IMG/VR virus record: IMGVR_UViG_3300027707_000013
Coordinates: 6,610 to 70,609 of that record
Direction: 5' to 3' (one strand)
DNA length: 64,000 nt
From: a virus
Lineage: Duplodnaviria > Caudoviricetes
Shown: positions 29,278 to 39,252 of the stretch, in pieces
How the letters are laid out: the number at the start of each line of letters is the position of its first letter
Position numbering within the stretch: position 1 is the first letter of the stretch
Notes under the pieces: model-generated
Database searches by the model: none
What the model was told of the DNA's origin: nothing
The model's input: only the letters and a program-made list of their open reading frames with translations
Position numbers and translations under genes: made by a program

Positions 29278-30051
29278 ATGACTATGAAACTAAAACAATT
29301 ATTTATTGCGATTTTCGCAACATCGGTATTATTCGTATCTTGTAGTAAAGATGACGTGTATGAACCAGTTAAACAAACTTCAATTGAATCAACTCAGGGA
29401 CAAGACCTAAGAACAATGTCTACATCACCGACTGTTTCAACGGTTGAACCAAAGGCTTACATTTTTGTTGAAAGTAGAATTAACAAAAGTCCAAGAAAAG
29501 TTGTGGATTATTTAAAAACAACTCAAAGACATTCACAATCAACAGGAACAAGATTTCTTTCTTTTTTTGTGAATGGTATTACAAGTTCTAATTTTAATGA
29601 TTTAATTAATTATTATAATATACCTTTTTGGAAAACTGACGCATCTTTAAAGGTTATCGAAACCGAAGTACCACAAGTAACTGGAGATGTGGATTCTTAT
29701 AATAACCCAAAATTAGCCTATAATTTTACAACTGTTAAAATACCTAAAGGTACGTTCAACGATTGGGGATGGGTTACGGTACTTATACCAACGTCAGCGA
29801 TGAATAATGACACAAAAAGACAAAATCAAATTGGTTATTATGCTAAAAACGGAAACAGAATAACCTCAAGCGGTAATAATACTCAAACAATTATTAACAC
29901 TAATAGACAACTATCGTCTTACGTAATCAATTATACAGGAAATGTAATCCCACAAGGTCAATATCGAGTATACACTACTCATGGCGGATTTGGAATGATG
30001 ATTGGTTTTAACTCAACAAATGACGTTTATTTTAGGGGAGCGTCTAATTAA
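29278..30051 (+). CDS. Bacteroidota-type lipoprotein
   Basis: VLFVSC lipobox; TATCTTTG upstream. Confidence 0.65.
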   Translation: MTMKLKQLFIAIFATSVLFVSCSKDDVYEPVKQTSIESTQGQDLRTMSTSPTVSTVEPKAYIFVESRINKSPRKVVDYLKTTQRHSQSTGTRFLSFFVNGITSSNFNDLINYYNIPFWKTDASLKVIETEVPQVTGDVDSYNNPKLAYNFTTVKIPKGTFNDWGWVTVLIPTSAMNNDTKRQNQIGYYAKNGNRITSSGNNTQTIINTNRQLSSYVINYTGNVIPQGQYRVYTTHGGFGMMIGFNSTNDVYFRGASN

Positions 30052-30107
30052 TTGAGATTTATTTAGAATTTATTTGATTTATAATATATTTATTGTAATA
30101 TTGCACT

Positions 30108-30206
30108 ATGAAAACTATGAACACAAATACAAATTTAGACACACCGACAACTCCTAATGGGGATGCAGGCACTATTTGCGTAAGTTCAGAAGCGAGTGGT
30201 TGGTAA
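30108..30206 (+). CDS. leader peptide 1 of tRNA cluster 1 (T/N/D/P/G/A-rich)
   Basis: MKTMNTNTNLDTPTTPNGDAGTICVSSEASGW*; 18 of codons 3-22 are T, N, D, P, G or A. Confidence 0.8.
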   Translation: MKTMNTNTNLDTPTTPNGDAGTICVSSEASGW

Positions 30207-30227
30207 CAATATTATAGCCAATTATCT

Positions 30228-30258
30228 AAACCCTGAACTAATACTTCAGGGTTTTTTT
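30228..30258 (+). terminator. attenuator terminator 1
   Basis: AAACCCTGAA-CTAATAC-TTCAGGGTTT plus T-run, 5 nt before tRNA-Pro. Confidence 0.85.
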
Positions 30259-30263
30259 ATGTA

Positions 30264-30337
30264 CGGGATGTAGCGTAGTCAGGTATCGCGCCACGTTTGG
30301 GACGTGGAGGCCGTTGGTTCGAATCCAGCTATCCCGA
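30264..30337 (+). tRNA. trnP: tRNA-Pro(TGG)
   Basis: Cloverleaf; anticodon arm CCACG-TTTGGGA-CGTGG. Confidence 0.95.
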
Positions 30338-30377
30338 CAAAAGTTTTCCTTATGGAAAAGTTTGATTATTATTATAT

Positions 30378-30449
30378 TGCTCTATCGTATAAGGGTTATT
30401 ACGGTTGACTGTTAATCAATTTATCCAAGTTCGAATCTTGGTGGAGCAG
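30378..30449 (+). tRNA. trnN: tRNA-Asn(GTT)
   Basis: GTTGA-CTGTTAA-TCAAT; T-loop TTCGAAT. Confidence 0.9.
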
Positions 30450-30529
30450 CTGTGGTGGGTGGAAAAATTCCAATGTTGTAGTATCGTGGATGGAGAAATC
30501 CTGAAGCATAAACAGACAAAAAGAAAGAA

Positions 30530-31018
30530 ATGATGTTAAAAACATTCTTATTGACTGGATTGTTATTGTTAGGAACAATAACAACAAAAGCACAAGAGAA
30601 GCAAGTACAGATTGATTCAAATACTAAAGAGAGTATTACAAAAGAAAATTTGTATGAGCAGATAATGAAGTACGGGATTAAGTTCCCTGATGTGGTATTC
30701 GCACAAGCGGTATTAGAGTCAGGTCAATTTACCTCCAAGTTGTTCAAATCGGCAAACAACTTATTTGGTATGAAAATACCAACAAAAAGGGAGTCATCGG
30801 CAAATGGTAAAACCAAAAGTGGATACTCAAGTTATGAAGATTGGAACTTTAGTGTATACGATTACTCTTTATGGCAAAATTTTATGTTAAGAAACAAAAG
30901 TGATTTAACAAAAAAAGAGTACCTTGCACTCCTTGGTAAGGTTTATGCAGAAGACAAAAGATATGTTAGTAGTTTAAAACGAGTAATCGGTGAACACCAA
31001 CATATTTTAACACAGTAA
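30530..31018 (+). CDS. glucosaminidase/FlgJ-like muramidase with signal peptide
   Basis: AQAVLESG, NNLFGMK, YAEDKRY. Confidence 0.85.
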   Translation: MMLKTFLLTGLLLLGTITTKAQEKQVQIDSNTKESITKENLYEQIMKYGIKFPDVVFAQAVLESGQFTSKLFKSANNLFGMKIPTKRESSANGKTKSGYSSYEDWNFSVYDYSLWQNFMLRNKSDLTKKEYLALLGKVYAEDKRYVSSLKRVIGEHQHILTQ

Positions 31019-31047
31019 AAAGTTTGGGGTGAAACTCCCCATAATTT

Positions 31048-31120
31048 GGTCCCGTGGTTGAATGGTTACAATTCCACCCTGTCACGGTGCGAGATACGGG
31101 TTCGAATCCCGTCGGGACCG
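31048..31120 (+). tRNA. trnD: tRNA-Asp(GTC)
   Basis: GGTCCCG/CGGGACC acceptor; loop CTGTCAC. Confidence 0.95.
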
Positions 31121-31177
31121 CAAAGAGGGTTATATGTGTAGTAACCTCAGGTGTGATATCCGCCACTACACTCTTAA

Positions 31178-31253
31178 GCGGTAGTAGCTCAGTTGGTAGA
31201 GCTCGTTCCTTCCAAGTACGAGGTCGCAGGTTCGAACCCTGTCTACCGCTCCA
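31178..31253 (+). tRNA. trnG: tRNA-Gly(TCC), CCA encoded
   Basis: Loop CTTCCAA; GCGGTAG/CTACCGC acceptor. Confidence 0.95.
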
Positions 31254-31300
31254 AGGGTTGTGGGAACCCAAGAGTATGTGATGAGCATACACCCACAAAT

Positions 31301-31376
31301 GCTTCCATAGCTCAGTTGGTAGAGCAGCTGATTTGTAATCAGCAGGTCGTTGGTTCGAGCCCGACTGGAAGCTCCA
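31301..31376 (+). tRNA. trnT: tRNA-Thr(TGT), CCA encoded
   Basis: GCTGA-TTTGTAA-TCAGC. Confidence 0.95.
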
Positions 31377-31381
31377 CTTTA

Positions 31382-31453
31382 GGGGATTTAGCTGAGTTGG
31401 TTTAGCACCGCCCTTGCACGGCGGGGACAAGAGTTCGAGTCTCTTATTCTCCA
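31382..31453 (+). tRNA. trnA: tRNA-Ala(TGC)
   Basis: G3.U70 pair; CCGCC-CTTGCAC-GGCGG. Confidence 0.95.
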
Positions 31454-31467
31454 CAAACAAATAAACG

Positions 31468-31821
31468 ATGGCACATCCAAACTTACATGCAAAATCATCC
31501 GCCAAAAAGTTTGGTGGGAAACCTGAGGACTACATTCATTTACACGAATGGTTAGATGAAACCAAAGGATGGTTTGGAGATTCACTTCATAGAATGTTTA
31601 GACATCATAGTGAAGGAATCTTTGAAATGGAAAAACGATTTGGTACTGAATTCAAAAACAGTGACGGGGATACCGTTTACACAAGATATATTGGAGAACA
31701 ACATATAAAAGAGGATTGTAATAACTACATTCCGTCAGCCAAAGAGTGGGTAAATAACATATCTACAAATCAACGACCTCAGTGGATGTTAAAAACAATA
31801 AAATTAGAATTCACTGACTGA
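31468..31821 (+). CDS. DUF6915-like protein
   Basis: MAHP..HAKSSAKKFGG.PEDY..HRMFRHHSEG..EQHIKED. Confidence 0.7.
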   Translation: MAHPNLHAKSSAKKFGGKPEDYIHLHEWLDETKGWFGDSLHRMFRHHSEGIFEMEKRFGTEFKNSDGDTVYTRYIGEQHIKEDCNNYIPSAKEWVNNISTNQRPQWMLKTIKLEFTD

Positions 31822-31832
31822 TATTTATAAGT

Positions 31833-32546
31833 ATGAAAGAACTTTTAACACCAGAAGAAAAACAATACTTAAAAAGAGTATCCAATTACTTAGGTTCAAT
31901 GGGGATGCAAGATGGTAATGTTGAAATTGACATAGATAATGGATGGACATTTAGTTATGATGATATCGATTGGAATTATATTACCCATTTCACTAATAAC
32001 TATAATGCGGATATTCCATCAGGATTAATACCAATACTTCAAAAAATAATGAAATATTGTGATGATGAGGGGTTAATTAAAGAACATGATGATAATATAA
32101 ATTATCAGAGATTAGAATATGATATTGATGTTGATGCTAAAAAAATTCAATTAAGTCATTGGTGGTCTTTTTATGATAGAGGTGAAGGTAGTTCAAGAGA
32201 ATATGATTCAGAAGAGGATATTGAAAGGTTTGATAGTTGGATGGAACTGTATTTTTCCGATGTCGAAATTCCCAATGATGGTGTCCTAACTGTAACCTAT
32301 AATGGGTCAGGTGATTCAGGTTATATGGAGAGTTCGTTTGAAGAAAATAATGACCAAGTTCCTGCAGGAATTGAGGATTGGTGTTACGGAGAATTATCAA
32401 GAAATTATGGTGGATGGGAAATTAATGAAGGGTCCGATGGTAACTTTATATTTGACTTCAACACAAAAATAGTTACATTAAATCATACAGAGAACATTGA
32501 AGAAAACGCAAGCGATACTTATTTTGAGCAGAGCTTCGCAAATTAA
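31833..32546 (+). CDS. DUF6878-like protein
   Basis: YNGSGDSG and GGWEINEGSDG motifs. Confidence 0.6.
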   Translation: MKELLTPEEKQYLKRVSNYLGSMGMQDGNVEIDIDNGWTFSYDDIDWNYITHFTNNYNADIPSGLIPILQKIMKYCDDEGLIKEHDDNINYQRLEYDIDVDAKKIQLSHWWSFYDRGEGSSREYDSEEDIERFDSWMELYFSDVEIPNDGVLTVTYNGSGDSGYMESSFEENNDQVPAGIEDWCYGELSRNYGGWEINEGSDGNFIFDFNTKIVTLNHTENIEENASDTYFEQSFAN

Positions 32547-32562
32547 GACATATTTATAAAAC

Positions 32563-32631
32563 ATGAGAACAACATTATTACATACGTTATTACTTGATAG
32601 ACAAGGTCTATTAAGAAGACTTATGCCGTAA
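32563..32631 (+). CDS. leader peptide 2 of tRNA cluster 2 (Leu/Arg-rich)
   Basis: MRTTLLHTLLLDRQGLLRRLMP*; 5 TTA, 2 CTT, 1 CTA and 4 AGA codons. Confidence 0.8.
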   Translation: MRTTLLHTLLLDRQGLLRRLMP

Positions 32632-32663
32632 TTTGTTCAGAGCCGTTCTATTTATAGATATTC

Positions 32664-32695
32664 AACCCTGAACCAAAAAAGTTCGGGGTTTTTTT
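32664..32695 (+). terminator. attenuator terminator 2
   Basis: AACCCTGAAC-CAAAAAA-GTTCGGGGTT plus T-run. Confidence 0.85.
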
Positions 32696-32735
32696 ATGAC
32701 TTTTTCAGAGATATTCACTATCTTTGTAAAATAAC

Positions 32736-32820
32736 GCCGAGGTGGTGTAATGGTAGCCACGAGGGACTTAAAATCCCTTGGTCAGTAACGACCGTGAGGG
32801 TTCGAGTCCCTCCCTCGGTA
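32736..32820 (+). tRNA. trnL: tRNA-Leu(TAA)
   Basis: AGGGA-CTTAAAA-TCCCT; long variable arm. Confidence 0.95.
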
Positions 32821-32827
32821 CAAAATT

Positions 32828-32901
32828 GGTTTGGTAGCTCAGCTGGATAGAGCAACGCACTTCTAATGCGTAGGTCATAGGTTCGAATCCTATCCGAATC
32901 A
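32828..32901 (+). tRNA. trnR: tRNA-Arg(TCT)
   Basis: ACGCA-CTTCTAA-TGCGT. Confidence 0.95.
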
Positions 32902-32903
32902 CA

Positions 32904-32997
32904 ATCATTATCGTAGCTCAGTGAGATACGGCGCAAGATACACACTTAAACAACGCGGGAGAGGCGCCTTTCCCGATGTGGCTGAAGCGATAATGAT
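32904..32997 (+). ncRNA. unassigned structured RNA between tRNAs
   Basis: 10-bp closing stem ATCATTATCG/CGATAATGAT with internal CGGGAGAG/CTTTCCCG hairpin. Confidence 0.45.
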
Positions 32998-33001
32998 ATT
33001 T

Positions 33002-33082
33002 ACCCCGATGGCGTAATGGTAGCCGCGCAAGTCTTAGGAACTTGTGACTTCGGTCGTATCGGTTCGAGTCCGATTTGGGGTA
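33002..33082 (+). tRNA. trnL: tRNA-Leu(TAG)
   Basis: CAAGT-CTTAGGA-ACTTG; long variable arm. Confidence 0.95.
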
Positions 33083-33096
33083 CAAGAAAGTAAATT

Positions 33097-33816
33097 ATGT
33101 ACGTACAAAATCCTTTAGTTAAAACTAGTCAACCGAATTTATTTCATTTGGCTCCAATTCCCGTATTCATGAAAGTTTTCGGTGACGATGAATTCCATGA
33201 TGAGGTATACACGTTTGGGTTTGAGAATCTAACTCCCCAACAAAAGTTAATGGGTCAGGAACTTCCTGAACAATACGACATTAACAGACAATCAAATTAT
33301 TCTGTGAATTACGATAAGAGAGAAATGTGGGTGGAACCTACAGAGTATAATCCTATTGGTAGTCGTTTTTGGACACCGCCTAACGACTTTCTTGACATCA
33401 ACAATGAGAACGTTAAGAAGATTAGACAAAGGGTTGAGAGTGGTTATATGGAGTTATTAGACATGTTAGGGTTCCAACACAATAGAAAACCTGATATTAC
33501 CGAGAGCTGGATTCAATATTATAACCCAACTGAAGGTAGAGGTCATAATGCTCACAATCACTGTAGATGGCAACCAAATGAAGAAACAATGTTAAACTTC
33601 TCAGGAGGTTATTACTTATCTGACGGTGACCCTATTGCCGACCATCCTTATAGTGGAGTTTTTACATTCCATATTAGAGGGATGTCTCACTTTATCAGAC
33701 CTAAAAAAGGTATGTTAATCATTTGGCCGTATGATATCGTACATTCGGTTAAACCATTTTACGGAAAAACACATAGATGTGTTATTAATTTCAATATTCA
33801 AGACGGAAAAAAATGA
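33097..33816 (+). CDS. 2OG-Fe(II) oxygenase-like protein (TIGR02466-like)
   Basis: ESWIQYY, HNAHNH, FSGGYYL, KGMLIIWP..HSVKP, RCVINFN. Confidence 0.75.
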   Translation: MYVQNPLVKTSQPNLFHLAPIPVFMKVFGDDEFHDEVYTFGFENLTPQQKLMGQELPEQYDINRQSNYSVNYDKREMWVEPTEYNPIGSRFWTPPNDFLDINNENVKKIRQRVESGYMELLDMLGFQHNRKPDITESWIQYYNPTEGRGHNAHNHCRWQPNEETMLNFSGGYYLSDGDPIADHPYSGVFTFHIRGMSHFIRPKKGMLIIWPYDIVHSVKPFYGKTHRCVINFNIQDGKK

Positions 33817-33867
33817 TTATCTATATTATATATATAATAAATAATATGTTTAAATTAACAAGTAAAG

Positions 33868-34455
33868 ATGCTATATAAAACTTTTGTTATTTCATTAAAA
33901 AGAAGACCCGATAGAAGAGCAAAAATTAAAGATTTGTTTATAAAAAACAATCTAAAGTTTTCTTTTTATGACGCAATTGATGGACGTGATTTAATTGTTA
34001 CGGATGAGATTGAAGAATTATTTTTAAATAATGAGTTTGAAGATTGGGGTATAATAAAAGAATGTATCTATGGTAATACCTTAACTCATCTAAAGCTATT
34101 GAAAGAATGTTCTGAGCAGAATTTACCGTATTTTATTTTTGAGGATGATGTTAAAATAAAGAAAGATATTAATTTCACGTTTGAGAGTATTGTTGAAAAA
34201 CAATTAGATGCTTTTTGGTTAATAGATTTAGAACCTTCGTCGTTAGCATACGTTGTTTGGCCTGAAGGGGCTAAAAAAATACATGATTGGATAATGAATG
34301 TTGGAAAGGCAGATAAAGGAATGGATTGGAAATTATTAGAAATAAAAAACACTAATCTCCTAAATTCTGATAAGATATGGGACGAATACTTCTATCAAGT
34401 ACCTGGAGAAGATTCCGATATTGCCCCTAAAGGATATAAAAAAATAATAATATGA
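33868..34455 (+). CDS. glycosyltransferase family 25
   Basis: VISLKRRPDRR, FYDAIDG, THLKLL, IFEDDV. Confidence 0.85.
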   Translation: MLYKTFVISLKRRPDRRAKIKDLFIKNNLKFSFYDAIDGRDLIVTDEIEELFLNNEFEDWGIIKECIYGNTLTHLKLLKECSEQNLPYFIFEDDVKIKKDINFTFESIVEKQLDAFWLIDLEPSSLAYVVWPEGAKKIHDWIMNVGKADKGMDWKLLEIKNTNLLNSDKIWDEYFYQVPGEDSDIAPKGYKKIII

Positions 34456-35030
34456 AACAAATAGATTTAGATATTTTTGTATTTCCAAAAATCATGACTG
34501 ATGAACTTATTGAAAGACTAATGTCGGTTAGAAATAAGAGCGGTTTTGATGGAAGATTAGATTTACATATTGAGGATAAAAACACATTTTATATTTTTGA
34601 TAATTTTTGGTTTTCTGAAATTGAATCCAAATATTTGGGACATTATTTTAGTACGTATGATGTTGAAAAAGGAATAGGATTAAATTCAAGTGAGGAGACT
34701 ATAAAACAATTAAGTAAATTTGTTGAAACAAAATGGAGAGATTTATTCTTACTTCATTATACACCTAATAGTTTAATTAACGGTGAAAAAGATATTCATT
34801 GGGATTTTAGTGGGTTAAGTATGGTTGGATGTTTAACTGATGATTATGAAGGAGGTAAACTAATTTTTCCTAGACAGAATGTTACTTACAGATTAGAAAA
34901 AGGGGATGTTATCGTGTTTCCAGGAGGTTTAACTCACCCACACTATGTGGAACCCGTAACTAAAGGTTTTAGGGATGTAATTGTTGGTCAAAGTATGACA
35001 TTACCTCAAGACCATAAAATCGATTATTAA
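34452..35030 (+). CDS. 2OG-Fe(II) oxygenase (lysyl/prolyl hydroxylase-like)
   Basis: IHWD, DYEGGKL, FPG..THPH.VEPVTKG.R. Confidence 0.8.
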   Translation: MKQIDLDIFVFPKIMTDELIERLMSVRNKSGFDGRLDLHIEDKNTFYIFDNFWFSEIESKYLGHYFSTYDVEKGIGLNSSEETIKQLSKFVETKWRDLFLLHYTPNSLINGEKDIHWDFSGLSMVGCLTDDYEGGKLIFPRQNVTYRLEKGDVIVFPGGLTHPHYVEPVTKGFRDVIVGQSMTLPQDHKIDY

Positions 35031-35036
35031 AAATAA

Positions 35037-35067
35037 TTTGACAACTCAGAGATTTTTACTATCTTTG
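35037..35067 (+). promoter_or_regulatory. Bacteroidota-type promoter of leader 3
   Basis: TTTG-N19-TATCTTTG. Confidence 0.7.
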
Positions 35068-35085
35068 AACTATATATTAGAAATA

Positions 35086-35187
35086 ATGAAAACTACAATA
35101 AAACATATGGTCTTTAGTACACAGCAAAAATCGATTTGTTGGTATGAGCGTATGCGCGATTGTAGTTCGGATATAATTTTTGAGTAA
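35086..35187 (+). CDS. leader peptide 3 of tRNA cluster 3
   Basis: MKTTIKHMVFSTQQKSICWYERMRDCSSDIIFE*; contains all 13 amino acids of cluster 3 and no L, P, G, A or N. Confidence 0.8.
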   Translation: MKTTIKHMVFSTQQKSICWYERMRDCSSDIIFE

Positions 35188-35222
35188 TTTTTTAAAATAA
35201 AAATAAACCAAATTTTTTATAT

Positions 35223-35255
35223 ACCCCGAACTCGTAAAAAGGTTCGGGGTTTTTT
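35223..35255 (+). terminator. attenuator terminator 3
   Basis: ACCCCGAACT-CGTAAAAA-GGTTCGGGGT plus T-run. Confidence 0.85.
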
Positions 35256-35271
35256 GTTTTAAAATTGTTAG

Positions 35272-35283
35272 GTTCTTTGAAAT
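35272..35283 (+). promoter_or_regulatory. boxA-like antitermination element
   Basis: GTTCTTTGAAAT; the same TTCTTTGAAAT lies just upstream of the tmRNA. Confidence 0.5.
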
Positions 35284-35313
35284 ATTGGTTGTAATTTTGT
35301 ACTTGATTTAAAC

Positions 35314-35387
35314 GTCGCGTTGGACAAATTGGTTAAGTCGTCATCCTTTCACGATGAAGATTACGGGTTCGAACCCCGTACGCGATA
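35314..35387 (+). tRNA. trnE: tRNA-Glu(TTC)
   Basis: TCATC-CTTTCAC-GATGA. Confidence 0.95.
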
Positions 35388-35397
35388 CATAATTTAC

Positions 35398-35469
35398 AGT
35401 TCCTTAGCTCAGTGGAAGAGTCCTTGCCTTACATGCAAGTAGTCGTAGGTTCGAATCCTACAGGAACTA
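35398..35469 (+). tRNA. trnV: tRNA-Val(TAC)
   Basis: CTTGC-CTTACAT-GCAAG. Confidence 0.95.
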
Positions 35470-35474
35470 CATTA

Positions 35475-35547
35475 GGTGACGTAGCTCAGTTGGTAGAGCA
35501 CTTGCCTGAAGAGCAAGGTGTCGTCAGTTCGATTCTGACCGTTACCA
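35475..35547 (+). tRNA. trnF: tRNA-Phe(GAA)
   Basis: CTTGC-CTGAAGA-GCAAG. Confidence 0.95.
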
Positions 35548-35622
35548 CGGAGTCCCGAATTAACGGGAAACCCCCACTCCCATATGGCAGCCAGTCCGTT
35601 AACCTGGTGAAGTGGGGTATTT

Positions 35623-35696
35623 GACCTCTTAGCTCAGTTGGCTAGAGCACTTCACTTTTAATGAAGGAGTCCCGAGTTCGAGTCTCGGAGGGGTCA
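35623..35696 (+). tRNA. trnK: tRNA-Lys(TTT)
   Basis: CTTCA-CTTTTAA-TGAAG. Confidence 0.95.
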
Positions 35697-35711
35697 CAAA
35701 AAACATATATT

Positions 35712-35945
35712 ATGAAAGCAATACTTGAATTTAATTTACCTGAAGATAATCAGGAGTTTGAATTGGCAACAAAGGGTCTTAAATTTTGGTCGGTCTTATG
35801 GGAATTAGACCAATCTTTAAGGACTAAAACAAAATATGCTCCCGACAATTTACCTCAAGATAAGTACGACGCTTATCAAGAAATAAGGGATGAACTTCGT
35901 GAGTTAATGTCGGATAATAATGTTAATTTTGACATGGTTAAATAA
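35712..35945 (+). CDS. conserved-looking phage hypothetical protein
   Basis: MKAILEFNLPED; start moved out of tRNA-Lys. Confidence 0.65.
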   Translation: MKAILEFNLPEDNQEFELATKGLKFWSVLWELDQSLRTKTKYAPDNLPQDKYDAYQEIRDELRELMSDNNVNFDMVK

Positions 35946-35956
35946 AAAACAATAAG

Positions 35957-36580
35957 ATGATAGATAACATAAACATAATAAAACCGTTATTAAACTTCGA
36001 GGAGAAGGGAGACTTCTATATGTTGTATGTCTTCAAACGTAAGAAAGACCAACCTGAAGGTGAGAGAGATAACCATCAGTCGGTTAGAACTATCAAAACA
36101 TATTGCATTGAATCAATTGACCATTTGGAAAGGAGATATGATGAGGTAAAACAACTATGTGAGATGTTCAAGGCAAGAGCTTACATTCATGTTCAGAAAC
36201 AAAATCACAGAGATGTGTCTTTGGATATGTTGGCGAGTTTAGCTGAGAGAATTAAGAATGGAGTTCAAAACCAAAAGGGGTTATTTGATTCGGTTGTTGG
36301 ACAGATTAAGACTCAAGAGAAAAGATGGATTATCGATATTGATAACGTATCAATGGATGGATTCAATCATGACCCATACCAAGTATCGTTGAGAGAATAT
36401 ATAAACGAGTTACAGAAAGAGGCAGGAAAAGACCAAGGAATGACTTTTATTAAGACAAGAAGTGGATTCCATATCATAACTCAACCTTTTAATGTGATGA
36501 AATTTAAAGAAAGATATCCCGAGGTTGATATCCAAAAAAAGAACCCAACATTATTATATTATCCCAATAATTTGGGTTAA
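35957..36580 (+). CDS. hypothetical protein, possible AEP/primase-like fold
   Basis: WIIDID..TRSGFH resembles the DxD and SGxH motifs; the fold assignment is weak. Confidence 0.55.
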   Translation: MIDNINIIKPLLNFEEKGDFYMLYVFKRKKDQPEGERDNHQSVRTIKTYCIESIDHLERRYDEVKQLCEMFKARAYIHVQKQNHRDVSLDMLASLAERIKNGVQNQKGLFDSVVGQIKTQEKRWIIDIDNVSMDGFNHDPYQVSLREYINELQKEAGKDQGMTFIKTRSGFHIITQPFNVMKFKERYPEVDIQKKNPTLLYYPNNLG

Positions 36581-36595
36581 ATTTGTAAAACAAAG

Positions 36596-36667
36596 GGTCG
36601 GTTGGCCGAGTGGTTTAGGCGGTAGTCTGCAAAACTATCTACACAGGTTCGATTCCTGTACCGACCT
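36596..36667 (+). tRNA. trnC: tRNA-Cys(GCA)
   Basis: GTAGT-CTGCAAA-ACTAT. Confidence 0.95.
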
Positions 36668-36668
36668 C

Positions 36669-36788
36669 ATGACAAAGAAAGAAATTAACAAAATGGTTAA
36701 AGCCATTAGAATGACAACAAAAAAAGCTTGTAAGAATAAGAAATCTGCTCGTAAGTTTCTTATTAAGGCGGGAATTGTAAAAAAATAA
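36669..36788 (+). CDS. 39-aa Lys-rich peptide
   Basis: MTKKEINKMVKAIRMTTKKACKNKKSARKFLIKAGIVKK*, filling the Cys-Trp spacer. Confidence 0.5.
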   Translation: MTKKEINKMVKAIRMTTKKACKNKKSARKFLIKAGIVKK

Positions 36789-36789
36789 T

Positions 36790-36862
36790 ACGTGTGTAGC
36801 TCAGACGGTAGAGCAGTAGTCTCCAAAACTATGTGTCAGAGGTTCGAATCCTTTCATGCGTG
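36790..36862 (+). tRNA. trnW: tRNA-Trp(CCA)
   Basis: GTAGT-CTCCAAA-ACTAT. Confidence 0.93.
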
Positions 36863-36865
36863 CTA

Positions 36866-37127
36866 AAGGTTGATTGGAAAGCCTTACACCTTCTCTAAGG
36901 AGTTGGAATGTAAGCGAGGGGACTGAATGAAGTCGAAGAAATGCCAATCATAAAAGTAGATGTCCACGCACCCATCTTCTACTTTCCTTAAAATATTAGG
37001 TTGATTGGGGAATGATGATGTAAATACCTGGTAGTGGTTGGAATAAGACATCGTCGGAGTTTAAATTACCATTAGTAATGCCAATCATAAAAGGAGATGT
37101 CCACTGAACCATCTTCTCCTTTCCTTA
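36866..37127 (+). ncRNA. two tandem copies of an unassigned structured RNA motif
   Basis: Both copies read AGGTTGATTGG..GTTGGAAT..ATGCCAATCATAAAAG(T/G)AGATGTCCAC..CCATCTTCT(A/C)CTTTCCTT, with a compensatory T-A/G-C change. Confidence 0.65.
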
Positions 37128-37131
37128 TTTT

Positions 37132-37213
37132 GGGAGTATCGCATAGCGGCAATTGCAGAAGACTGTAAATCTTCCCTCTTTAGAGTTCGTAGGTTCGAGT
37201 CCTACTCCTCCCA
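37132..37213 (+). tRNA. trnY: tRNA-Tyr(GTA)
   Basis: GAAGA-CTGTAAA-TCTTC; long variable arm. Confidence 0.95.
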
Positions 37214-37219
37214 CATTTT

Positions 37220-37293
37220 GGACTTGTAGCTCAGTTGGTTAGAGCGCTTCACTCATAATGAATAGGTCCCTGGTTCGAGCCCAGGCTGGTCCA
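37220..37293 (+). tRNA. tRNA with CAT anticodon (probably Ile2, possibly Met)
   Basis: Loop CTCATAA; C4-G69 pair as in Ile2 tRNAs. Confidence 0.85.
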
Positions 37294-37299
37294 CAATAT

Positions 37300-37370
37300 T
37301 GCCCGATGGTGTAGCGGTAGCACAAATGTTTTTGGTGCATTTAGGGTTGGTTCGAATCCAGCTCGGGTAA
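37300..37370 (+). tRNA. trnQ: tRNA-Gln(TTG)
   Basis: AATGT-TTTTGGT-GCATT; TGCCCGA/TCGGGTA acceptor. Confidence 0.92.
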
Positions 37371-37379
37371 CTAAATAAA

Positions 37380-37451
37380 ATGAATATGTGGTTTTTAATT
37401 GTTTGGATTGTATTGATGATTATTGTCAAATGGGACAATGACCGTGATTAG
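37380..37451 (+). CDS. 23-aa hydrophobic peptide
   Basis: MNMWFLIVWIVLMIIVKWDNDRD*. Confidence 0.35.
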   Translation: MNMWFLIVWIVLMIIVKWDNDRD

Positions 37452-37523
37452 GGTTTTATGGTGTAACGGATAGCACACGAAACTACGGATTTCGGAGTTT
37501 AGGTTCGAATCCTAATAGAACCT
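37452..37523 (+). tRNA. trnR: tRNA-Arg(ACG)
   Basis: CGAAA-CTACGGA-TTTCG. Confidence 0.92.
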
Positions 37524-37529
37524 CTAAAC

Positions 37530-37599
37530 TGCGTGGCTTAGAGGAAAAGAACTATCTCTCATAAGGATGGTCAATTGGGTTCGAAACCCAAACACGCAA
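37530..37599 (+). tRNA. atypical tRNA with CAT anticodon (Met-like), weak D-arm
   Basis: TGCGTG/CACGCA acceptor, loop CTCATAA, T-arm TTGGG-TTCGAAA-CCCAA. Confidence 0.6.
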
Positions 37600-37604
37600 C
37601 ATAT

Positions 37605-37678
37605 GGTGGCTATAGCTCAGTTGGCAGAGCGCTTGGTTGTGGTCCAAGTTGTCACGGGTTCGATTCCCGTTAGTCACC
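37605..37678 (+). tRNA. trnH: tRNA-His(GTG)
   Basis: G-1 and C73; CTTGG-TTGTGGT-CCAAG. Confidence 0.95.
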
Positions 37679-37812
37679 CAAAGTGTTTACAACGGACAAG
37701 GCTTAGGCAAGTGAGTTGAGAATGAGTAGTAGGAGATTTAATCGTTTGGACTACAGAAAGTTTGATACAATAGATTGGTGGGATGCGAGTGGTTGACCAA
37801 AACACTTATTAC

Positions 37813-37898
37813 GGAAGGATGGCAGAGTTGGTCTATCGCGCTTGACTTGAAATCAAGTGTACTGCAAGGTACCGTGGGTTCGAATCCTACTCCTTCCG
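37813..37898 (+). tRNA. trnS: tRNA-Ser(TGA)
   Basis: CTTGA-CTTGAAA-TCAAG; long variable arm. Confidence 0.95.
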
Positions 37899-37930
37899 CA
37901 ATTTTTTACCCATATTGACTATTTATTAGT

Positions 37931-38380
37931 ATGGAAAAAGTAACATTAACAAAAGAGCAACTATTCAAGGTAATGCATTTGAATGAGCAGGAAAATAAGC
38001 CTGAAACTAAAAGTAACTCAGGATTTAAGAATATGGTGTCAACACTATTACATTCTCAAACTCAAGTACATATTTTTCATTTACAGACTAAGTCATATTC
38101 TGAACATAAAGCATTACAAAAGTACTATGAAGGTATTGACGCATTAGTGGACGGTATTATCGAAAGTTATCAAGGTAAGTACGATGTTATTAAAAATTAT
38201 GATTCAGTTAAAACTGAGGACTACAAGAGTTCTGAGCAAGTAATTAATTATTTCAAATCATTAGATACTATGATTGAGAAAGCAAGAAAAGGAGTTAAAG
38301 AATCGTATATTCAAAACCAAATTGATACGGTTCAGGAATTAATATTTTCCACAGTGTATAAGTTAAGATTCTTAAAATAA
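37931..38380 (+). CDS. ferritin/Dps-like protein (DUF5856-like) with head-type propeptide
   Basis: QVHIFHLQTKSYSEHKALQKYYEGI..D.IIESYQG; TATTTAT at 37920. Confidence 0.7.
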   Translation: MEKVTLTKEQLFKVMHLNEQENKPETKSNSGFKNMVSTLLHSQTQVHIFHLQTKSYSEHKALQKYYEGIDALVDGIIESYQGKYDVIKNYDSVKTEDYKSSEQVINYFKSLDTMIEKARKGVKESYIQNQIDTVQELIFSTVYKLRFLK

Positions 38381-38474
38381 TATACTGTTGAAATCTAATA
38401 TTGAATTCCTCTAATTAAAAGTTAGGGGAATTTTTTTTTATGGTATGATTTTAATATATTTGTACCAACAACAA

Positions 38475-38548
38475 TGGAATATAACTCAGTTGGTTAGAGT
38501 GTCATCCTGATACGGTGAAAGTCGATGGTTCGAGTCCATCTATTCCAA
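38475..38548 (+). tRNA. trnI: tRNA-Ile(GAT)
   Basis: TCATC-CTGATAC-GGTGA. Confidence 0.93.
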
Positions 38549-38550
38549 CA

Positions 38551-38886
38551 ATGGAAAATGAAATTAAAAAGAAAACTGGCAATAGAGCCAAGTTTAAGAA
38601 AATTGTAAAAGAGTATAAAGAAGCGACCAATAAAGAGATTTGGGAAGGAGTTAGAGATAATTTTACTTTCGGGTTTATTGGAGCGACTATTGTTGTGTTT
38701 ATAGCGACAAGAGCTGATATTGCGGTATTATTAGGTTATTTAGCTTATTACTTTTTTGTAGGTAAGATAGTTAATCGACCAAAATACGTAACCGATTTGG
38801 GAAAATTAATTGTGTTTCCAGTACCATCAGCATTAGGTGCATTTATAGGATATAAATTATCCTATTACCTTTTACAGTTATTGTAA
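38551..38886 (+). CDS. membrane protein
   Basis: Three hydrophobic segments; start moved out of tRNA-Ile. Confidence 0.6.
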   Translation: MENEIKKKTGNRAKFKKIVKEYKEATNKEIWEGVRDNFTFGFIGATIVVFIATRADIAVLLGYLAYYFFVGKIVNRPKYVTDLGKLIVFPVPSALGAFIGYKLSYYLLQLL

Positions 38887-38892
38887 TGTTTT

Positions 38893-38978
38893 GGAAAGTT
38901 ACCCAAGTTGGTGAAGGGGCTTGTTTGCTAAACAAGTAGGGTGTAAAAGCCGCGAGGGTTCGAGCCCCTCACTTTCCG
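38893..38978 (+). tRNA. trnS: tRNA-Ser(GCT)
   Basis: CTTGT-TTGCTAA-ACAAG; long variable arm. Confidence 0.95.
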
Positions 38979-39066
38979 CAGAAAAAAAATATTTGAAAAG
39001 TTGACATAATCGATTAACCTTCTTATATTTATAATCTATTAATAAATAAAACAAATAAAAAAAAAC

Positions 39067-39252
39067 ATGAAAAAAGTAGTATTAGCAATCTTTACAATCG
39101 TAGCGTTAGCCTCTTGTGGTAACGGAAAATCAACTGAAGTTAAATCTGACTCAACTGTAGTAGCGGTAGATTCAGTTAAAGTAGATTCAGCAGCAGTGGC
39201 TGTAGATTCTGTAAAAGCTGAAGCGCCTGCGTCAGTAGAAGAAAAAAAATAA
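39067..39252 (+). CDS. small lipoprotein with D(S/T)(A/V/T) repeats
   Basis: IVALASC lipobox; own TTGACA-N17-TATATT promoter and terminator. Confidence 0.75.
   Translation: MKKVVLAIFTIVALASCGNGKSTEVKSDSTVVAVDSVKVDSAAVAVDSVKAEAPASVEEKK

Follow-up and report, generated by a model that had tools for sequence, protein, structure and literature searches.

A candidate leader-peptide attenuator ahead of a tRNA-Leu/Arg/Leu block, and its two sister units, in the tRNA array of a large uncultured freshwater phage

The segment 32563–32695 of the phage DNA analysed here is read, with a probability of about 0.65, as a ribosome-mediated (leader-peptide) transcription attenuator that gates transcription arriving from upstream into a block of three tRNA genes, tRNA-Leu(UAA), tRNA-Arg(UCU) and tRNA-Leu(UAG). 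A preliminary description of the locus had proposed an attenuator sensing Leu and Arg, and this reading gains support from the composition of the leader, the alternative pairings open to its RNA, a covarying antiterminator, conservation that exceeds that of the flanks, the retention of the Leu/Arg codons, and two paralogous units that match it in design. All of the evidence is computational. The window, by which is meant the whole stretch of 64,000 nucleotides, comes from a 70.6-kb IMG/VR virus record with an estimated completeness of 23%, from which it follows that the phage is large. Many freshwater metagenomes hold DNA near-identical to it. No close cultured relative was found in the phage collection searched; the closest proteins of cultured phages are distant matches, all from Bacteroidota phages, and tRNAs are absent at the locus of those matches.

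The window carries 23 tRNA genes, all on the + strand between 30264 and 38979, with protein genes between the tRNA blocks. Together they cover all 20 amino acids, so that each codon can be assigned to one tRNA block. Three paralogous leader units are set into this array and are named here L1, L2 and L3, L2 being the unit at 32563–32695. For comparison, about 90 loci of relatives were retrieved by searching with the leader peptides and with the 2OG-oxygenase-like gene that lies nearby. The array also includes a protein of unknown family (35957–36580), a homolog of which, in Cellulophaga phage phi17:2, adjoins a tRNA nucleotidyltransferase gene, hinting at a tRNA-related role.

The L2 leader ORF (32563–32631, + strand) consists of 22 codons followed by TAA, and specifies 8 Leu and 4 Arg residues. 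The codons used are TTA (five), CTT (two), CTA (one) and AGA (four), with TTA-TTA in tandem twice and AGA-AGA once, which agrees with the counts and tandem pairs given in the preliminary description. Leu and AGR codons account for 12 of the 21 post-start codons, whereas their share is 0.11 among the 15,104 codons of the 49 long ORFs in the window that served as background (P = 3.5e-7, binomial), and Lys, Asn and Ile are missing from the leader. TTA and AGA are already the commonest Leu and Arg codons of the phage (45.6 and 25.1 per 1000, respectively), so the enrichment reflects amino-acid or tRNA identity and not codon rarity. The start codon is unpaired in the predicted fold. None of the three leader peptides has a match in Pfam or PHROGs.

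Downstream of the leader, and likewise on the + strand, the block itself (32736–33083) contains tRNA-Leu(UAA) at 32736–32821, which decodes TTA/TTG, tRNA-Arg(UCU) at 32828–32902, which decodes AGA/AGG, and tRNA-Leu(UAG) at 33002–33083, which decodes CTA/CTG and possibly all CTN codons; the earlier statement that this cluster holds the decoders of TTA, AGA and CTA is therefore correct. The last two genes are separated by a structured spacer of 99 nt (32903–33001; MFE -31.4 kcal/mol, z = -3.6) that has no Rfam match. The spacer is near-identical in three lineages and is replaced in others by unrelated segments of around 100 nt, and no consensus structure was found for it across lineages. In L006-type relatives tRNA-Leu(UAA) and tRNA-Arg are set apart by some 200 nt of inserted sequence (L006:5517-5731) that is not present in the window.

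Between the ORF and tRNA-Leu lies a canonical intrinsic terminator (32664–32695, + strand), as had been claimed, with a 10-bp stem that includes five G-C pairs (32664–32690), a 7-nt loop and a run of seven T. Terminators of this family occur three times in the window, once in each leader unit and nowhere else, and share a signature in which the 5′ arm contains C[T/C]GAAC and the 3′ arm ends in GGGG followed by the T-run. The region 32551–32705 folds better than its shuffles (z = -5.67). Both the fold of L2 and the consensus fold of five relatives predict a 1:2 hairpin of about 30 bp (32567–32638, + strand) that encloses the ORF and that, when no ribosome is stalled on the leader, would sequester GTTC (32635–32638), the first four bases of a putative antiterminator strand. 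This strand, GTTCAG (32635–32640, + strand), begins 4 nt and ends 9 nt past the stop codon and can pair with CTGAAC in the 5′ arm of the terminator.

A GTTC[A/G]G motif is found upstream of the terminator in every unit, within the tail of the ORF in L1 and L3 and after the stop codon in L2. Over 25 distinct units all 150 of 150 cells of the antiterminator helix are pairable, compared with 56% or less in every slid control, and the one variable pair covaries (AU 16, GC 8, GU 1, and zero mismatches), this being a single column pair with few events. In an alignment of L2 alone there are no compensatory pairs because variation among the L2 sequences is too low. In L1 and L3 the codon ahead of TCR varies at its first base (Ser/Gly/Arg/Cys) while GT is fixed, which indicates a constraint at the RNA level. 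The helix has only 6 bp. Its duplex energy is -7.9 kcal/mol, that of the terminator -13.5 kcal/mol, and among random 20-mers from the window about 6% bind the terminator arm equally well, so that the helix is not significant alone. The predicted antiterminator is backed by its conserved position and by covariation, not by energy.

The effect of ribosome position was modelled by truncating the RNA before the 3′ arm of the terminator and masking the ribosome footprint. For stalls at the majority of codons through codon 20, pairing of the terminator 5′ arm has values of 0.46–0.67 in the window, with a dip to 0.33–0.36 at codons 13–17, and of 0.59–0.75 in two relatives. The arm is largely free (0.22–0.38) once the ribosome has moved to the final codons or the stop codon, and also when no ribosome is present. 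Equilibrium folding with the whole terminator present gave the terminator a probability of about 0.96 at every ribosome position, and was dropped as uninformative because attenuation is a kinetic process. As modelled, the L2 RNA shows the classical 1:2, 2:3 and 3:4 layout.

From the anatomy, composition, conservation and covariation observed, we infer the following course of leader translation, stalling and read-through. RNA polymerase would transcribe the 22-codon leader with a ribosome translating behind it. Where charged decoders for Leu and Arg(AGA) are plentiful, the ribosome would reach the stop codon and cover GTTCAG (32635–32640), the terminator hairpin would form, and transcription would end at the T-run. 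A ribosome that is slow on any of the 12 Leu/Arg codons would melt the long hairpin and leave GTTCAG free to pair with CTGAAC of the terminator 5′ arm, and polymerase could then continue into the tRNA genes. If the leader were not translated at all, the long hairpin would keep GTTC and the terminator would form. As the output consists of those tRNAs whose shortage would have caused the stall, the circuit would amount to supply-on-demand feedback.

The sister units provide the closest parallels. L1 (30108–30258, + strand) has a leader rich in Asn, Thr, Pro, Asp, Gly and Ala, followed by a terminator, and the tRNAs behind it are those for Pro, Asn, Asp, Gly, Thr and Ala. L3 (35086–35255, + strand), which also ends in a terminator, has a leader containing all 13 amino-acid types of its tRNA blocks; these carry, in order, tRNA-Glu, Val, Phe, Lys, Cys, Trp, Tyr, Met, Gln, Arg(ACG), His, Ser, Ile and Ser. 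Each of the three leader ORFs starts Met-Lys/Arg-Thr. When leaders are tabulated against tRNA-block classes the table is diagonal (20/1/10, 6/12/3 and 5/0/27; 3x3 chi-square P = 8.6e-12), and only 81 of 200,000 random ORFs match the 13/13 block types of L3. The amino acids that make up a leader are thus, in each unit, those carried by the tRNAs encoded behind it. The gap between the T-run of L1 and tRNA-Pro is 5–6 nt in the window (5 nt) and in most relatives, so that tRNA-Pro would be made only by read-through of the terminator, and this gap is the strongest anatomical argument that the units gate tRNA synthesis.

L1 and L3 were found in all relatives that carry the tRNA array. Their peptides diverge to 34–42% identity with the amino-acid alphabet kept. 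Across 12 distinct variants of L1, 184 of the 204 cells at codons 5–21 belong to the class of L1 itself and the remaining 20 are all Leu or Arg, with zero cells from the class that forms 55% of ordinary codons; for L3, also with 12 variants, the class of L3 itself accounts for 206 of 216 cells. Replacements stay within class in 12 of 12 cases for L1 (5.7 expected) and 8 of 8 for L3 (2.6 expected), the expectations being derived from single-base neighbours. The invariant residues of L3 are His, Gln, Gln, Ile, Cys and Trp, and tRNAs for His, Gln, Cys and Trp occur in the L3 block of every relative, although tRNA-Ile is missing from two loci (L039 and L074). To judge from these alignments, the pattern in L3 and L1 fits a composition-constrained sensor and not a sequence-constrained protein.

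This bears directly on another explanation, that L2 is an independent gene, equipped with a promoter-like box and a terminator, whose product is a Leu/Arg-rich micropeptide of 22 residues. The ORF is indeed conserved, with a -7-like box upstream and a terminator downstream. Set against this are the lack of any Pfam or PHROG match noted above, the drift of the sister-leader sequences, in which only the amino-acid class is kept, tail codons in which the RNA sequence and not the encoded residue is fixed, and an exchange of ORF tails between L1 and L3, and the explanation is considered very improbable. The exchange is seen in one relative (L090:4001-4153), where the L1 leader ends in the ORF tail of the window's L3 (35086–35255) and the downstream hairpin partner is changed to match. 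The shared tail implies that the units are modular, combining a variable sensor with a common switch.

The content of the leaders tracks the loss of tRNAs only partially. Lys and CGN-Arg codons are absent from L3 in two of the three lineages that are without those tRNAs, and of the five lineages that lack tRNA-Ala two have Gly in place of Ala in L1, while Val, Ser and Ile codons persist in L3 where the matching tRNAs were not seen. In one relative (L074:1928-2400) tRNA-Glu/Val/Phe/Lys are deleted, so that a protein gene comes next after the L3 leader and its terminator, and the leader retains its Glu, Val and Phe codons despite the deletion. Some close relatives (L006:7568-7650 and L056) have about 80 nt of additional sequence, able to form a hairpin, inserted after the -7 box and ahead of tRNA-Glu, which is not present in the window; an insert of the same type also occurs on an RNA-library contig.

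L2 is less widespread than its sisters. Among the sampled relatives it is confined to two lineages, the close group of the window and that of L072/L073/L090, and a pattern scan of viral contigs yielded, among the matches listed, only the four known L2 variants together with many chance hits. Within these limits it is well conserved: all 12 Leu/Arg codon positions are kept in four of four distinct variants, replacements are restricted to codons 4, 7, 12 and 22 (Thr/Ile, His/Asn, Asp/Asn and Pro/Arg, respectively) with all other changes synonymous, and the unit is 90–92% identical between the two lineages, compared with 74–77% for the upstream gene and 79–80% for tRNA-Leu. The first seven codons of L2 resemble those of one variant of L3, which suggests that L2 is a paralog of L3 whose codons have been exchanged for Leu/Arg ones, and on the sequences at hand it appears to be younger than L1 and L3. 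Five lineages lack L2, and three of them have 3–5 Leu codons in the leader of L1, two of these three with an AGA codon as well, compared with a single Leu codon in lineages that have L2; the higher Leu content of L1 in these lineages is suggestive, but is confounded by phylogeny. The leaders were absent from the small tRNA clusters of more distant relatives (55–61% neighbour-protein identity), so far as these were sampled, and the leader-unit design appears to be clade-restricted among the sampled relatives.

Relatives without the L2 leader (75–89% neighbour-protein identity) carry the same Leu/Arg/Leu block, either with a terminator and promoter but no ORF (L015 and L082) or with the promoter alone (L019, L023 and L039), and L2 is therefore dispensable. 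The promoter in question was predicted in the preliminary description as a Bacteroidota-type box located between the terminator and tRNA-Leu. It was found as TATCTTTG at 32719–32726 (+ strand), 9 nt before tRNA-Leu, with a predicted start near 32731, and fits the flavobacterial sigma-A -7 box, given as TAnnTTTG at -12 to -5 (PMC9723704). A box of this form stands 5–23 nt before the first tRNA of the block in all eight of the eight lineages examined, the leaderless ones included. The -33 element is only an imperfect TATG some 20 nt upstream, as judged by eye. TAnnTTTG is mildly enriched across the window (117 found, 95 expected), and support for its role as a promoter comes from its conserved position, not from counts. 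A sigma-A-type -7 box is likewise present between the terminator and the first tRNA at L3. Elsewhere in the array, a fourth terminator with a 14-bp stem is found together with a TATATTTG box directly before tRNA-Ile (38403–38462), has no leader ORF, and is a plain terminator-plus-promoter junction.

The same layout is the basis of a simpler account of L2, in which the terminator merely ends the upstream DUF6878 gene (31833–32546), an independent sigma-A promoter serves the tRNAs, and the small ORF has no regulatory role. L015 and L082 show exactly this arrangement without the ORF, the promoter box is conserved everywhere, including in the three relatives that have the promoter only, and one contig of an RNA library starts in the upstream gene and extends into the L2 leader, where it ends at 32624. 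What this account leaves unexplained is the biased composition of L2 and the retention of all 12 of its Leu/Arg codons, the better conservation of the unit than of the flanking gene and tRNA, the restriction of the terminator family to leader units, and the parallels with L1 and L3, the first of which leaves no room for a promoter ahead of its tRNA. It is regarded as unlikely.

The attenuator reading accommodates the promoter as follows: the attenuated input would act on top of the promoter at 32719–32726, which would drive the tRNAs regardless, and since the bypass box is conserved in all relatives, L2 could only add to a constitutive input. The two-tier control suggested previously is supported to this extent, with an attenuated input plus a conserved bypass promoter, whereas its other component, a distinct late promoter of sequence TATTTAT ahead of the leader, is not supported. 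That motif is about as frequent in the window as expected (79 found, 77 expected), and it reads as a sigma-A -7 box with the last G changed to A. A weak -7-like box of the TAnnTTTA type (32549–32556, + strand) may serve as a promoter of L2 itself, giving a 5′UTR of 2–4 nt, and the same weak type of box lies ahead of L1 (30085–30092). Alternatively, given the RNA contig that extends from the upstream gene into the leader, L2 may simply be read on the transcript of that gene. RNA-library contigs from four metatranscriptomes include none that covers L1 and none that bridges 32624 to 32736; one spans the L3 leader, the L3 terminator and tRNA-Glu. Such contigs cannot show single transcripts, and they were not counted for or against read-through.

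The genes that lie beyond the tRNA block raise a different question, that of what the switch controls. Two 2OG-oxygenase-like genes (33097–33816 and 34452–35030) and a GT25 gene (33868–34455) are co-directional with the tRNAs, and no terminator is predicted between 32695 and 35223, the stretch that contains them. These protein genes could be the gated targets of an attenuator that senses amino-acid supply or general translation capacity, the tRNAs being passengers. A leader-peptide attenuator cannot by itself separate a shortage of tRNA from a shortage of amino acid, as the trp, his and leu attenuators illustrate, and this lends the proposal some substance. However, the alphabets of the leaders match the adjoining tRNAs in three of three units and do not match an amino-acid pathway, L1 adjoins tRNA-Pro, and the proteins encoded downstream have no link to Leu or Arg metabolism, and the protein genes are judged quite improbable as the targets.

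Taken across the array, the attenuator reading can be extended to a tentative and more doubtful scheme, in which the three leaders form a codon checklist that splits the 20 amino acids among the tRNA blocks, and so act as a sensor of tRNA depletion within a self-tuning circuit for counter-defence or supply. The triggers might be cuts made by anticodon nucleases, decay of host tRNAs during infection, or the codon demand of an AT-rich phage, and in each case the block replacing exactly the missing tRNA species would be turned on. Compensation for codon usage, decay of host tRNAs and escape from defences that cleave tRNAs have all been proposed as reasons for phage tRNA arrays, and the switch would bear on the open question of what such arrays are for and how they are used. 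If the attenuator reading is true, the phage gauges how fast codons are decoded and responds by making the corresponding tRNAs, and a textbook mechanism reaches new target genes. L2 would be a compact, testable part of about 135 nt, and close relatives that hold the same tRNA block with and without the switch offer a natural comparison.

Among known systems, a full-text search, in which subscription journals were thinly covered, turned up no account of tRNA genes, whether of phages or of cells, that are controlled by leader-peptide attenuation. Leader-peptide control has previously been described only for amino-acid and synthetase genes, and tRNA genes would be a new class of target. A cmscan search of 29900–39100 (E <= 1) returned only the tRNAs and chance matches, with no leader family of Rfam and no match to the T-box model. 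In Flavobacterium, leader-peptide attenuation with intrinsic terminators has been reported for amino-acid operons (PMC9723704).

The nearest likenesses are to leuL of the enterobacterial leu operon, trpL, hisL and pheL, in which a short ORF enriched in the sensed codons is followed by an intrinsic terminator, and the position of the ribosome decides between mutually exclusive 1:2, 2:3 and 3:4 hairpins. In L2 some 60 nt lie between the last codon sensed and the 3′ arm, much as in trp. Unlike these leaders, L2 is phage-encoded, would target tRNA genes and not biosynthetic enzymes, would sense a mixture of Leu and Arg, lies in a Bacteroidota-type context without a Shine-Dalgarno sequence, has a constitutive promoter behind its terminator, and shows no homology to them by sequence or model. 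With thrL (Thr/Ile) and ilvL (Ile/Val/Leu) it shares the feature of several amino acids per leader, there being two in L2 (Leu and Arg), six types in L1 and 13 in L3, but L1 and L3 differ from thrL and ilvL in being checklists, with one or two codons per type and not runs, and in that the types sensed are the set of the downstream tRNA genes. The pheM-pheST system of E. coli is similar in that the gene under leader-peptide attenuation belongs to the translation machinery that serves the amino acid being sensed, the target there being a synthetase and here the tRNAs themselves. T-box riboswitches also convert a shortage of tRNA charging into read-through of a terminator by way of an antiterminator, but they bind uncharged tRNA directly and need no ORF.
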